5,383 bases of DNA from a virus (taxonomy: Duplodnaviria > Heunggongvirae > Uroviricota > Caudoviricetes): positions 1-5,383 of IMG/VR virus record IMGVR_UViG_2684622670_000007; one strand, 5' to 3'. The stretch's first letter is position 1; each line of letters begins with the position of its first letter. The position numbers and the translations under genes are program-made. Shown one piece after another: positions 1-4,846 of this stretch. The notes below the pieces were generated by a model that made no database searches, was not told the origin of the DNA, and was given only the letters and a program-made list of their open reading frames with translations.

Positions 1-436
1 GTACCGGTTTAACCTCGTCACGGGGCTTTCTGATGGCTGAAAGACGCTTTACAAGTTCATCCATCGCCTGACTCGATGCGTCGATGGTTCCGCTTTGGAT
101 TGGTTCACGCATTTCATCCATGATTTCCAGCACCAGACGGCGGTGATAGTTATCCGCGACCATTCCGGCATATCCCTTCAGGTTTGCGGCACTCGGGCAG
201 TTTTTGCTGGTCATCAGGATTGACGTGAAATGCTCCTCTCCGCACGCCTCGGCAACCATCAGCGCGTCGATTAGGTTTCTGTTTCGCGCCTGCTTCCGGA
301 TAACCTCGAAGGCTTTCCGGTAGAGCGGAATTGAAAACGCTTCCGGCTCAAGCGTTGCCAGAACGTCACTGGCAGTTGGTGTTAATCCACCAATCAGCAG
401 GCCACCGATAACGCTCGCTTCGATATCCTGTTTCAT
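1..436 (-). CDS. Replicative DNA helicase, DnaB family (phage P22 gene 12-type), N-terminal ~145 codons only; gene continues past the left edge
   Basis: Manual minus-strand translation from ATG (revcomp 434-436) gives [17 protein letters not shown]...[18 protein letters not shown]..., matching the conserved DnaB N-terminal domain (E. coli DnaB ...EAEQSVLGGLML...NTPSAANISAYADIV...). The start overlaps the stop of the upstream O-like gene (ATGA), suggesting translational coupling. Not in the ORF track because it is truncated by the window edge. Confidence 0.7.
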
Positions 437-1382: not shown

Positions 1383-1655
1383 CTACCTGCCTTGACGAAA
1401 GACCTTAAGAACATCGTTAAACTGACTTACGGATATGTCTTCTTTGAGCAGCTTTTCCAGAAATGCGTTTGGAATGAACGTATATCCCTCCTCTTTTGGT
1501 AGGGACGGGAGCAACGCCCTCGCCTCAGCCTTCAGAAGCTCAGTTCTGGCAACTTTCACAAAAGAGATTTGAGTTCTTTCATCAATGGAACGAAGGAAGC
1601 GCAAACGCTTAACTTCTTTGTGTGTATCAGGTGGATTAAAGCCTTTGTTTCGCAT
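1383..1655 (-). CDS. Hypothetical protein (90 aa) between cII and the O-like gene
   Basis: Internal ATG (revcomp 1653-1655) is preceded by GAGGTAA at good spacing. The 146-aa version in the ORF track would overlap the cII-like gene by about 145 bp in another frame, so the shorter start is preferred. The stop lies 2 nt before the O-like ATG. No homologue recognised by eye. Confidence 0.5.
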   Translation of the reverse strand: MRNKGFNPPDTHKEVKRLRFLRSIDERTQISFVKVARTELLKAEARALLPSLPKEEGYTFIPNAFLEKLLKEDISVSQFNDVLKVFRQGR

Positions 1656-1666
1656 ATAATTACCTC

Positions 1667-1735
1667 GTTGGATGTTATTAAAATTCCATTTGTATTTGAT
1701 CAGAACGCTCGGTCTTGCACACCGGGCTTTTTTTA
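1667..1735 (+). ncRNA. OOP-like antisense RNA (promoter pO-like plus intrinsic terminator), antisense to the 3' end of cII
   Basis: Perfect -10 TATAAT at 1655-1660 with a weak -35. Plus-strand hairpin 1707-1713/1721-1727 (7 bp, one G-U) followed by T7 (1728-1734) lies inside the cII 3' coding region. The predicted ~68-nt transcript would overlap cII by ~57 nt, as lambda OOP does. Confidence 0.45.
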
Positions 1736-1977
1736 TTGGTGAGTCCATCAAGCGCATACTTAAAAGCCCTGCTAATCGGACTGATGTCTGATGCCATTCC
1801 AAAAGCACACAAGACCGAAGCAATAAATCTCCAGTCCGTTCTGCTTATCTTCGATTCATGACAGCCAATCATCTTTGCCAGACCGCGCTGGGTAAGCGTT
1901 GACAGGTTGATGAGTAAATCTGTTTCTGCGCGATCAACGTCGCGCTGTGATAGTTTGCTGTAACTTGTTTGTTCCAT
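1678..1977 (-). CDS. cII: cII-like transcriptional activator (99 aa)
   Basis: The translation aligns with lambda CII from recall: HTH region ...ESKISRTDW... and C-terminus ...LTNKKSPVCKTERSDQIQMEF versus lambda ...LTNKKRPAATERSEQIQMEF. Position downstream of cro and nutR is as expected. Confidence 0.85.
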   Translation of the reverse strand: MEQTSYSKLSQRDVDRAETDLLINLSTLTQRGLAKMIGCHESKISRTDWRFIASVLCAFGMASDISPISRAFKYALDGLTNKKSPVCKTERSDQIQMEF

Positions 1978-2004: not shown

Positions 2005-2027
2005 ACGCATCTGTTGATGCGTTTTTT
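2005..2027 (+). terminator. Intrinsic-terminator-like hairpin plus T-run on the plus strand in the cro-cII intergenic region
   Basis: ACGCATC (2005-2011), loop tgtt, GATGCGT (2016-2022), then a T-run through 2027. On the minus strand (cII leader) the same hairpin is preceded by an A-run and is not terminator-like. Function uncertain. Confidence 0.35.
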
Positions 2028-2028
2028 G

Positions 2029-2067
2029 TGGGGACGAATCATCCCCGACCTGATTGTTTAAAGAGCG
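2029..2067 (-). promoter_or_regulatory. nutR-like site: boxA (minus-strand CGCTCTTTAAACAA, plus coords 2054-2067) and boxB hairpin (plus coords 2029-2047)
   Basis: boxA is close to the recalled consensus CGCTCTTTAACAA. The hairpin GGGGA-ugauucg-UCCCC reads the same as the one downstream of PL (3761-3779). It lies between cro and cII, as lambda nutR does. Confidence 0.6.
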
Positions 2068-2361: not shown

Positions 2362-2398
2362 TAACCTTTGTTATTTTACTTTGGATAACCGTAGTTAT
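2336..2398. promoter_or_regulatory. Tripartite right operator: OR1 2336-2349 (ATAACtcaaGTTAT), OR2 2361-2374 (ATAACctttGTTAT), OR3 2385-2398 (ATAACcgtaGTTAT)
   Basis: Three perfect 14-bp palindromes of form ATAAC-N4-GTTAT with 24-25 bp centre-to-centre spacing, between divergent cro and cI. Related sites occur in the OL region. Confidence 0.7.
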
Positions 2399-2401
2399 AG
2401 A
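2373..2401 (+). promoter_or_regulatory. PRM-like promoter for cI: -10 TATAGA (2396-2401), poor -35; the cI mRNA is probably leaderless or nearly so
   Basis: The -10 overlaps OR3 and the predicted start is 1-3 nt before the cI ATG (2411), as for lambda PRM. The weak -35 is consistent with an activator-dependent promoter. Inference only. Confidence 0.4.
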
Positions 2402-2410
2402 TTTGTGGGT

Positions 2411-3118
2411 ATGAAAACATTCGCAGAAAGACTAAATGCAGCCATGAGCTCAGCAGGTGTATCGCAATCACAGCTTGCTGACATGGTTGGAATATCTCAG
2501 CCAGCCATACAGAAGATGTCATCCGGTAAAACAAACGGATCTCGCAAGATGGTTGAATTAGCCAATGCTTTAAAAGTACGCCCTGAATGGCTTAGCTCTG
2601 GTATTGGTGAAATGAGGGATGGTACACATGAAGAACCATCCAATGTCCGTGAATCATCTTTAAAAGCTGTGGTATGGGAAGATATTAAAAGAAACGATGA
2701 CGAGTTTGTCGCGTTGCCTCTTCTTAACGTTTCGCTTTCAGCTGGAAGCGGTAGCTGCGAGCTAGAGGAATCATCAGAGTTCTCTTTGGTTTTCAGAAAG
2801 TACTATCTGAAAAAGATGGGGGTATCTGAAAGATCAGCCAAGCTAGTTAGGGTTGTAGGGCAAAGCATGGAACCAACGCTTCACGACGGAGATGTTGTTG
2901 GTGTTAACACACAAGATACCACAATCAGAGATGGTAAAACCTACGCTATTTGCCAGTCTGATTTGTTACGAGTAAAAACATTAATCGCCACCCCTACATC
3001 GGTGATAATCAGATCAATAAATCGCGAAGAGTACCCAGATGAAGTAATGGATAGAGATGAATTTCATGAAACCGTAAGGATTATTGGCAGAGTATTCTGG
3101 TCGTCTCATAGTTGGTAA
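2411..3118 (+). CDS. cI: CI-like prophage repressor: N-terminal HTH_XRE domain plus C-terminal S24 (LexA-type) autopeptidase domain
   Basis: HTH QSQLADMVGISQPAIQKM; S24 motifs GQSMEP (Ser nucleophile) and RVKTL (Lys); candidate Ala-Gly cleavage site in LSAGSG. The ORF track begins at TTG 2381, but the ATG at 2411 (MKTFAERL...) fits the promoter geometry. Confidence 0.9.
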   Translation: MKTFAERLNAAMSSAGVSQSQLADMVGISQPAIQKMSSGKTNGSRKMVELANALKVRPEWLSSGIGEMRDGTHEEPSNVRESSLKAVVWEDIKRNDDEFVALPLLNVSLSAGSGSCELEESSEFSLVFRKYYLKKMGVSERSAKLVRVVGQSMEPTLHDGDVVGVNTQDTTIRDGKTYAICQSDLLRVKTLIATPTSVIIRSINREEYPDEVMDRDEFHETVRIIGRVFWSSHSW

Positions 3119-3158: not shown

Positions 3159-3455
3159 ATGGAATTTCTGATAGTTTTTGTTGTTGTTTTGGTCATCATT
3201 CTTTTTGTTTTGCTAAGCATTAGCAAAAAGCTATCTCAAACGATTGAACATAGCTCTAATCGCGCAAAAGAAGAAGACCATCTAATTGATATAAAAGAGA
3301 TTCTCTCTGATATAAAAATCACATTAGATGAAATAAAATACACAACAGATCTAATTGAACAGTATAAAATACCAACCCCAAACGAGAGAAAAGCAATAGA
3401 TCAATATCGTATTGACTTAGAAATCGACGAAATGCTAAGCAAAAGAAAAGACTAA
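3159..3455 (+). CDS. Small membrane protein (98 aa): one N-terminal transmembrane helix then a charged, probably coiled-coil domain; sits in the position of lambda rexAB and is probably co-transcribed with cI
   Basis: Strong SD GGAGG (3150-3154) before the ATG. Hydrophobic residues 3-21 (FLIVFVVVLVIILFVLLSI) are followed by a K/E/D-rich region. Markedly AT-rich compared with the flanking phage genes. Lies 41 bp downstream of cI and is followed by an intrinsic terminator. Confidence 0.6.
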   Translation: MEFLIVFVVVLVIILFVLLSISKKLSQTIEHSSNRAKEEDHLIDIKEILSDIKITLDEIKYTTDLIEQYKIPTPNERKAIDQYRIDLEIDEMLSKRKD

Positions 3456-3460
3456 AAACA

Positions 3461-3490
3461 CCCGGCCTCAGCGCCGGGTTTTCTTTTCCT
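3461..3490 (+). terminator. Rho-independent terminator ending the cI operon; possibly bidirectional
   Basis: Stem CCCGGC (3461-3466) / GCCGGG (3473-3478), 6-nt loop, then TTTTCTTTTCC. An A-run upstream (3454-3458) gives a U-run for the opposite strand. Confidence 0.75.
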
Positions 3491-3740: not shown

Positions 3741-3779
3741 GCTCTTTAACATTGATGGAATGGGGATGATTCGTCCCCA
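3741..3779 (+). promoter_or_regulatory. nutL-like site: boxA GCTCTTTAACA (3741-3751) and boxB hairpin (3761-3779)
   Basis: boxA-like motif followed 9 nt later by a hairpin, TGGGGA-tgattcg-TCCCCA, that matches the nutR hairpin at 18 of 19 positions. Lies between PL and the N-like gene. Confidence 0.6.
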
Positions 3780-3933: not shown

Positions 3934-4140
3934 GTGAAAGCAAGAGAGATTCGCAAACTCGAACGCGCTCGTAAGCACAAAGAGGCGACAGCAAAACGTA
4001 AAAATATTGACCGTGTTTCAATGGTGGTTTCGCTAGCAGGAGCGAATAGGAAGAAGGTTGAATGTGGTTCGTGCTGCCTGCCAAACGTAGCTCTTTACGC
4101 GGCAGGCTACCGGAAATCAAAACAACTGACGGCGAGGTGA
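3934..4140 (+). CDS. N: N-like transcription antitermination protein (68 aa, GTG start)
   Basis: First gene downstream of PL and nutL. Arginine/lysine-rich N-terminus (MKAREIRKLERARKHKEATAKRK). The C-terminal part resembles N proteins of P22-type phages from recall (unverified). Strong SD GGAGG (3923-3927) 6 nt before the GTG. Confidence 0.7.
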   Translation: MKAREIRKLERARKHKEATAKRKNIDRVSMVVSLAGANRKKVECGSCCLPNVALYAAGYRKSKQLTAR

Positions 4141-4161: not shown

Positions 4162-4701
4162 CTAAATTAGCTCATCAGCTTTACCAGCAAAGCGCATATA
4201 ACACTCATAGAACCAGACGTCAGGTATAACAAATTTCTCTTTACCTGACGCGCTGTAAGTCACACCTGAGCGATGGAGAAGGCCTTTTCTCATAAGAGAT
4301 AAAGCGACCGGATCGCCGTGCTTAAGTACGATTTTGTTATTTGCCATAACAGCAAATGCTAAAACCTCTTTTTCCTGAATACTCAGAGAATTGAACAGGC
4401 GCTCAGTCTCCACAATTACTTTAGCCTCATCTCTCTTACTGAGATATTTTTTATATCTGTCTGAAGATGCCAGAAATATAAACTCCATCACCCTGTTCAG
4501 AACATAACTGATACACAAAAGCATTGCGTAATACATCCAGTGATCTGGAAGTATTTCGGGGTTCCTTATATCTACCCACTCTTTAATTGATGCTGGGGTG
4601 ATTATTATCAAGGCAATTAAAATAATAAGCATATGAATTAACTGTTGTAGCGTAAGACCACGCAGGAAGAAACGTAATAGTTCCTGCCACCAGTTACTCA
4701 T
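4162..4701 (-). CDS. Membrane protein (179 aa), putative superinfection exclusion protein B (SieB)-like
   Basis: Convergent with and abutting the N-like gene, the arrangement I recall for lambda sieB and N. N-terminal hydrophobic segment (LIHMLIILIALIIITP) and soluble C-terminal domain. GGAG-type SD before the ATG. Low GC. The assignment rests on position, size and topology only. Confidence 0.5.
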   Translation of the reverse strand: MSNWWQELLRFFLRGLTLQQLIHMLIILIALIIITPASIKEWVDIRNPEILPDHWMYYAMLLCISYVLNRVMEFIFLASSDRYKKYLSKRDEAKVIVETERLFNSLSIQEKEVLAFAVMANNKIVLKHGDPVALSLMRKGLLHRSGVTYSASGKEKFVIPDVWFYECYMRFAGKADELI

Positions 4702-4720
4702 CGGTGAATCTCCATCATTC

Positions 4721-4768
4721 TCTCTGTAGGGGTGAATAGAGTTTATCCGATTTCTCGCTGTAGGGGTA
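4721..4768. repeat. Imperfect direct repeat with shared core CTGTAGGGGT in the divergent intergenic region
   Basis: TTCTCTCTGTAGGGGTGAATAGAG (about 4719-4742) and TTTCTCGCTGTAGGGGTACACGAG (about 4751-4774); the cores are ~35 bp apart, between the divergent SieB-like and 149-aa genes. Confidence 0.45.
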
Positions 4769-4846
4769 CACGAGAACCACCGAGCCTGATGTGGTTAAAA
4801 GACAGGCGCAATCTTTACAACCGCAATCCACTATTTAAGGTGATAT

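Follow-up and report, generated by a model that had tools for sequence, protein, structure and literature searches.

OOP is among the oldest known antisense RNAs. In lambda it is 77 nt long, runs from the promoter pO to the terminator tO, and overlaps cII by 52–55 nt (PMC5869508, PMC3349717); its coordinates are 38675 to 38599, its start is the G of GTTG (38675), and the CAT of the pO -10 element is the start codon of O. Cleavage of the lambda cII mRNA is RNase III-dependent (cited in PMC2327240 and PMC5869508), with cuts lying in the spacer, outside cII (PMC5869508). Lying over the start codon of O, the promoter pO dampens the pR transcription that converges on it, and a point mutation in its -10 element, 2 bp from the O start, inactivates it (PMC3985674). 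A LexA site has been reported "within the oop-pO sequence" of lambda, with no finer position given (PMC5869508), and the role of OOP in lambda after SOS induction is a minor one only (PMC2327240). OOP transcripts have also been observed in the phages BTP1 and P22 (PMC7067206, PMC13397905), those of P22 as 63-nt reads (PMC13397905), and Hayes et al. used a 33-bp "high homology region", ACTGGATCaATCcACAGGAGTaATTATGaCAAA, to find oop in lambdoid phages (PMC3349717).

The stretch of viral DNA analyzed here (the window, 5,383 nt) is a lambdoid, P22-like immunity and replication region that reads in reverse, with the gene order cI / cro / cII / small ORF / O-like / DnaB-like. From its first position onward it carries a DnaB-like helicase gene (~1–435, minus strand), an O-like replication protein gene (433–1380, minus; PF04492), a 90-aa ORF lying between the O-like gene and cII (1383–1655, minus; phrog_2519, E 2e-57), cII itself (1678–1977, minus; 99 aa plus stop; PF05269 Phage_CII, E 1e-33; phrog_191), a cro-like gene (2075–2320, minus), a cI-like repressor gene (2381–3118, plus), a 98-aa membrane ORF (3159–3455, plus; phrog_18389), a gene for an N/gp24-like protein (3934–4140, plus), and SieB (4162–4701, minus; PF14163). 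The 90-aa ORF, for which a Pfam search returned no match, is labelled hypothetical in the records of Stx2a 981509 and Kapi1; its ATG occupies 1653–1655 (minus), and its ribosome-binding site GAGG is the complement of 1663–1666. The stretch from cII to the replication genes is ~98% identical to many Stx2a-converting phages. The window as a whole is a mosaic, the best single phage record covering at most 50% of it.

Several other elements of the region were observed in passing. The stretch 4698–4824 (plus) agrees with the P22 "sas" small-RNA read of PMC13397905 at 117 of its 127 bases; it begins at the 5′ end of the SieB gene and runs on upstream of it, and the window probably carries a P22-type sieB/sas superinfection-exclusion module. 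An identical 17-nt hairpin, GGGGATGATTCGTCCCC, occurs at 2030–2046 (minus) and 3762–3778 (plus), one copy downstream of cro and the other downstream of the leftward promoter region, both in the direction of early transcription; the two look like nutR and nutL boxB sites for the N/gp24-like protein (3934–4140). Adjoining the first of these, between cII and cro, a terminator-like hairpin, ACGCATCTGTTGATGCGT, is followed by TTTTTT at 2005–2022 (plus), the T-run extending to 2028; on the minus strand this is the position of the tR1 annotated in epsilon34, and on the plus strand the hairpin would face transcripts from a pRE-type promoter. Directly after the 98-aa membrane ORF, at 3460–3479, a G+C-rich hairpin has flanking T-runs on both strands and resembles a bidirectional terminator. 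Within the O-like gene, copies of a 12-nt unit (TCATGTGCGG-like) recur at 12-nt spacing over 823–965. The lambda ori sits within O, and these repeats are presumably origin iterons.

Between the 90-aa ORF and cII, and extending into both, lies a unit that we read, at a probability of roughly 0.8, as the oop gene of this prophage, made up of a pO-type promoter, a non-coding RNA of ~69 nt, and a tO-type terminator in the 3′ end of cII. The element is of an ordinary, long-known kind, one already noted in Stx phages (PMC5488031). A sensitive BLAST search with positions 1630–1745 as the query aligned 1682–1743 of the window with lambda 38592–38650 at 85.5% identity (E 2e-9), covering the 3′ two-thirds of the predicted RNA, and the same search matched HK629 and HK633 at features annotated "similar to lambda oop RNA". 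Window and lambda correspond base for base in the positions of their -10 element, G start site, and terminator, the window reading TATAAT-TACCTC-GTTGGATG and lambda CATAAT-GACTCCT-GTTGATAG; the longer reads in the same orientation are TATAAT TACCTC GTTGGATGTT ... CAGAACGCTCGGTCTTGCACACCGGGCTTTTTTTATT in the window and CATAAT GACTCCT GTTGATAGATCC ... CAGAACGCTCGGTTGCCGCCGGGCGTTTTTTATT in lambda. Searching all Rfam families at a permissive threshold gave no match at the oop site (elsewhere in the window, a chance snoRNA-like match, E 0.56). Because OOP is absent from Rfam as a family, we built our own covariance model, taking from each of 14 other phages and prophages the segment that runs from the stop codon to the T-run and leaving out sequences of the window type. 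Run with filters off, this model gave a sole significant match in the window, at 1678–1736 (plus; 51 bits, E 9e-9), the next match having E = 1. The first-pass annotation of this DNA had proposed an OOP-like antisense unit over the 3′ end of cII, and the lambda alignment, the collinearity, the family model, and the compensatory changes described below all support that proposal. It is because of homology and covariation, not motif counts, that the unit stands beyond chance, and it is a true homologue of lambda pO-oop-tO rather than a look-alike.

The predicted RNA (1667–1735, plus; ~69 nt) has ends set by homology to lambda. Its start is the G of GTTGGATG, whose counterpart is the lambda pppG in GUUGAUAG, and its 3′ end falls at about A1735, after the U-run. 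It is antisense to, and convergent with, the 3′ end of cII (1678–1977, minus) and overlaps the last 58 nt of that gene, stop codon included; the ~68-nt RNA with ~57 nt over cII that had been estimated earlier agrees with these figures to 1–2 nt. Folded whole, the predicted RNA has a minimum free energy of −13.6 kcal/mol (z −1.2, no better than shuffles) and a 5′ helix of 4 bp, whereas lambda OOP reaches −28.5 kcal/mol (z −4.3) with a 5′ helix of 10–13 bp. Since the strong 5′ stem-loop is absent, the window RNA may be unstable.

Lambda OOP and the predicted window RNA are alike in being antisense to the 3′ end of cII and convergent with transcription from pR, in ending at the same type of terminator inside cII, in having the -10 element over the start codon of the next gene, and in starting at the same G in GTTG, abutting the ribosome-binding site of that gene. 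They differ in length, the window RNA being ~8 nt shorter because the spacer between cII and the next gene is shorter, and in the gene under the promoter, which is the 90-aa ORF in the window and O in lambda; the window stem has 7 bp with a 7-nt loop and a T7 tail, and the LexA-like box CTGT-N8-CCAG found at the lambda start site is absent from that of the window. P22 oop and BTP1 OOP likewise run antisense to the end of a cII homologue (c1). Their replication gene is preceded, as in the window, by a small ORF, named orf48, whose start lies under the promoter. The RefSeq record of P22, NC_002371, annotates this arrangement, with an "oop" promoter over orf48 and an "oop" terminator; the P22 coordinates given in PMC13397905 disagree with NC_002371.2, and the P22 locus was placed by BLAST. 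Both P22 and BTP1, however, have a long-type 5′ end with the LexA-like box, which the window does not, and a different, longer terminator stem that begins 3–5 nt from the stop codon, unlike that of the window; their cII is only ~24% identical to the window cII. The architecture of the window, with its short spacer, no LexA-like box, and a -10 element over the next ATG, is shared by Stx2a phages (e.g., LC487996 and Stx2a_F451), CUS-3, Kapi1, epsilon34/SPN9CC, GF-2, and phiEt88, and the unit of Stx2a 981509 is 98% identical to that of the window. None of the five feature tables consulted (Stx2a 981509, CUS-3, Kapi1, epsilon34, and Stx2a_F451) marks an oop feature at this position.

Across the sequences compared, oop units appear to be of two types: in the long type a LexA-type box occupies the start site, and in the short type, whose spacer is ~10 nt shorter, this box is missing. 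The long type comprises lambda, HK022, VT1-Sakai, HK629, P22, L, BTP1, and prophages of Pectobacterium, Mixta, and Winslowiella; the short type comprises the window, Stx2a_F451, Stx2a 981509, CUS-3, Kapi1, epsilon34/SPN9CC, GF-2, and prophages of Pantoea and Edwardsiella. Among 68 IMG/VR loci, which were restricted to a cII of at least 95% identity and used for flank mosaicism rather than covariation, 32 were long with the box, 35 were short without it, and one was rearranged. The box, CTGT-N8-CCAG over the start site, differs from the LexA core CTGT-N8-ACAG by a single mismatch. In lambda it reads CTGTTGATAGATCCAG (38662–38677, or 663–678 of our locus L001; one mismatch), and it stands at the same place in L003, L091, L093, L095, L096, L099, L104, L106, L108, L110, L111, and L114. 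It is kept in 12 of 26 relatives and is absent from the start site of all short-type units. Prophages of Escherichia, Salmonella, Pectobacterium, Mixta, and Winslowiella all have the same half-sites but differ in the spacer between them, a pattern that would be expected of a LexA operator. The box falls inside the 33-bp region ACTGGATCaATCcACAGGAGTaATTATGaCAAA of PMC3349717, by which the long-type subgroup of lambda, 434, 21, 933W, HK022, HK97, and P22 is defined, and we infer that it is the LexA site reported for lambda.

In the window, no LexA-like box with two or fewer mismatches was found over 1561–1849, and the best candidate near pO has four mismatches; the strong 5′ stem-loop that characterizes long-type RNAs is absent as well. 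By its sequence, then, the window unit is a short variant, with neither a LexA-like box at the start site nor a strong 5′ stem-loop. The likeness to lambda OOP that had been drawn at first holds as homology, and what it missed is this difference in type. Having neither feature, window oop is probably not tied in its expression to the SOS response, and the short-type RNA is possibly less structured and less stable. Two further loci deserve mention. In one IMG/VR locus (L034), the oop body and terminator are kept and unrelated sequence replaces the -10 element and the start of the next gene, a rearrangement or insertion having probably removed pO. In a Rosenbergiella prophage (L109), a one-mismatch LexA-type box, CTGTGACGGTTTACAC, lies 54 nt upstream of the cII stop in the oop orientation and overlaps the candidate -35 element (TTTACA) of a short-type unit; it may be there by chance, or it may represent another route of SOS coupling.

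With the DNA anatomy of the unit, its homology to lambda oop, and the selection on its terminator hairpin established here, a mechanism can be proposed by analogy with lambda. RNA polymerase would start at about G1667 and stop after the U-run at ~1735, giving an RNA perfectly complementary to the cII message made from pR over the final 55 coding nucleotides, the stop codon, and 11 nt of the spacer beyond it. RNase III would cut the duplex, the cII part of the message would decay, and with less CII the lysis/lysogeny decision would be pushed to lysis (PMC5869508, PMC2327240, PMC12197685). The cut sites in the window may differ from those of lambda, since only 11 nt of the duplex lie outside cII. 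Because pO would fire head-on against rightward transcription exactly where the 90-aa ORF has its ribosome-binding site and start codon, it would be expected, as in lambda, to dampen the downstream replication genes as well.

This last effect could be the main job of the unit, with RNA polymerase bound at pO, or firing from it, colliding with transcription from pR and so tuning the 90-aa ORF and the replication genes, while the short RNA, halted quickly by tO, would be largely a by-product. Lambda bears on this possibility from both sides: its pO, when active, lowers transcription from pR, and replication is impaired in a pO− mutant (PMC3985674), yet its OOP abolishes CII function when supplied in trans (PMC5869508, PMC3349717). 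In the window the -10 element covers a start codon, the predicted RNA begins right beside the ribosome-binding site of the next gene, and the promoter stays at the head of whichever gene comes after cII; what argues the other way is that the RNA body and the position of the terminator in cII are conserved and that the unit overlaps cII in 26 of 26 relatives examined. We regard interference as unlikely to be the principal function, and antisense pairing and promoter interference are not exclusive roles.

The pO-type -10 element, TATAAT (6/6; 1655–1660, plus), is collinear with the CATAAT of lambda pO and is the sole copy of this hexamer on either strand of the window; with 3.1 copies expected by chance, its presence carries no significance by itself. 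T1655 is common to the -10 element and the ATG of the 90-aa ORF, being the complement of its A, and the promoter thus lies over the start of the 90-aa ORF in the same way as lambda pO lies over O. The first-pass annotation had placed both the consensus hexamer and this overlap correctly, and its suggestion that the promoter might interfere with the 90-aa ORF is in keeping with lambda; its account of the promoter did not raise the weakness of the other elements. The best candidate for a -35 element is TGGATT (3/6; 1632–1637, plus), inside the 90-aa ORF at a 17-bp spacer from the -10 element, and the extended -10 TG is absent. For these two reasons a promoter scan of the window did not call the site at 1655–1660; the same scan called lambda pO, which reads TTGAGT-17-CATAAT with the TG (-35 4/6, -10 5/6). 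A second promoter feeding the terminator was considered and rejected, the scan of the plus strand upstream having returned none.

In 21 of 24 relatives, whichever gene follows cII has a -10 element of at least 5/6 (CATAAT or TATAAT) over its start codon, a conservation that is confounded with the start codon of that gene and its AT-rich spacer; the element consists of the ATG and three spacer bases, so translation signals also constrain it. The predicted RNAs of these 24 loci are 59–84 nt long, and the -35 region is not conserved among relatives. In the IMG/VR loci the same -10 element is followed by at least five unrelated downstream sequences (lambda O, an HK97 gp53-like gene, a P22 orf48-like gene, the 90-aa ORF, and a gene for an HTH protein), which places a mosaic joint just upstream of the start codon.

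These properties of the promoter have to be weighed against the possibility that the unit is a relic or nearly silent, its terminator and homologous body inherited and its short-variant promoter too weak to make a useful amount of RNA, so that it would be inert or would serve only to terminate stray leftward (plus-strand) transcription. The 3/6 match at -35, the missing TG, and the uncalled site fit such a relic, and the -10 element could be explained by the ATG and the AT-rich spacer; the TATAAT is nevertheless perfect and is invariant in 35 of 35 short-type IMG/VR loci as well as in CUS-3, Kapi1, and Stx2a_F451, despite differing upstream sequence. Short-type units with a good -10 element also recur in Pantoea, Edwardsiella, and Erwinia phages, and the G of GTTG at the predicted start is kept as in lambda, all of which argues against a relic, although no transcript of this locus or of any short-type unit was found in the literature, where the OOPs detected outside lambda (P22 and BTP1) are both of the long type. 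On balance we consider a relic improbable and retain the reading of the unit as an oop gene.

The terminator scan placed the tO-type hairpin at 1707–1727 (plus), with 7 pairs (5 of them G-C) and a 7-nt loop. The arms are GCTCGGT and ACCGGGC, the loop is CTTGCAC, and the whole lies within the cII codons for P-V-C-K-T-E-R. The hairpin is followed by a T7 run (TTTTTTT, 1728–1734, plus), the complement of the cII Lys-Lys codons and one further base. A hairpin with a T7 tail inside cII had been claimed beforehand, and both the terminator scan and the covariation bear it out. Terminator-like sites number 12 in the window and 4.7 ± 2.5 in shuffles, and the local fold of the hairpin is −10.7 kcal/mol (z −2.6). 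At position 1728 the window has T and all other relatives compared (~100) have G, so that GGGC TTTTTTT stands against GGGCG TTTTTT; the change removes the outermost C-G pair of the stem, brings the U-run to 7, and turns Arg into Ser in the conserved KK(R)P motif of cII, a combination that the window alone shows among short-type relatives.

Covariation was assessed on an unfitted MAFFT alignment of 14 distinct sequences (alignment A4). Loci were drawn from annotated phages and from species-representative genomes, a narrow cII alignment scan of which gave 15 genome loci, among them Pantoea, Pectobacterium, Mixta, Rosenbergiella, Winslowiella, Atlantibacter, Edwardsiella, and Shimwellia; the identity of cII to that of the window ranges from 22% to 99% across loci. 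Stem pairing reaches 98% over these 14 divergent cII loci, with changes on both sides in six of the seven pairs. None of 500 shuffles was as good, and pairing fell to at most 54% when the partner was slid by 1–3 columns. In 22 of 22 loci folded, the 3′ end of cII contains, on the antisense strand, a hairpin with a T-run after it, the conservation of the T-run being confounded with the conserved Lys-Lys codons of cII. At one stem position, 8 of the 14 sequences have U-G pairs, which are A-C mismatches on the sense strand, and the sense-strand fold is the weaker of the two (−7.9 vs. −10.7 kcal/mol), with a z of −1.6 that is not unusual. The residues encoded over the stem vary while pairing is kept (PVCKTERS, PAATERS, PVAAGDS, PAVTEAD, and others). 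Selection therefore acts on the antisense-strand hairpin across Enterobacterales prophages. That the hairpin is instead kept for the sense strand, where it would serve to stabilize or process the cII mRNA, or merely for the amino-acid sequence is very improbable and was rejected: a DNA palindrome can indeed fold in the sense RNA too, and the T-run corresponds to AAA AAA, codons for an invariant and a near-invariant Lys, but neither circumstance accounts for the U-G pairs, the weaker sense fold, the freedom of the encoded residues, or a U-run that lies 3′ of the hairpin on the antisense strand only, and the lambda oop terminator is in use as a strong terminator in vitro (PMC6182141).

Recognizing an oop homologue in another lambdoid prophage is mainly a gain in annotation, the unit being unmarked in the close relatives Stx2a 981509, Stx2a_F451, CUS-3, and Kapi1, and Rfam having no model for it. 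A by-product is the clean covariation signal, which identifies a cII-embedded terminator under selection across Enterobacterales prophages. Beyond this, we tentatively suggest, at somewhat less than even odds, that the short-type oop units form a distinct subclass uncoupled from the SOS response. If so, its members would include the window, many Stx2a prophages, CUS-3, Kapi1, and epsilon34-like Salmonella phages, together with prophages of Pantoea, Edwardsiella, and Erwinia; a deletion of ~10 bp in the spacer between cII and the next gene would have taken the LexA operator and the 5′ stem-loop, with the consensus TATAAT offsetting the loss. In that case the antisense brake on cII would operate constitutively instead of being induced by DNA damage, and the lysis/lysogeny bias set by OOP would be deaf to LexA in short-type phages, toxin-converting ones included. 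Should the split between long and short types be confirmed, the coupling of DNA damage to the shut-off of cII would differ between otherwise similar phages, Shiga-toxin phages among them.
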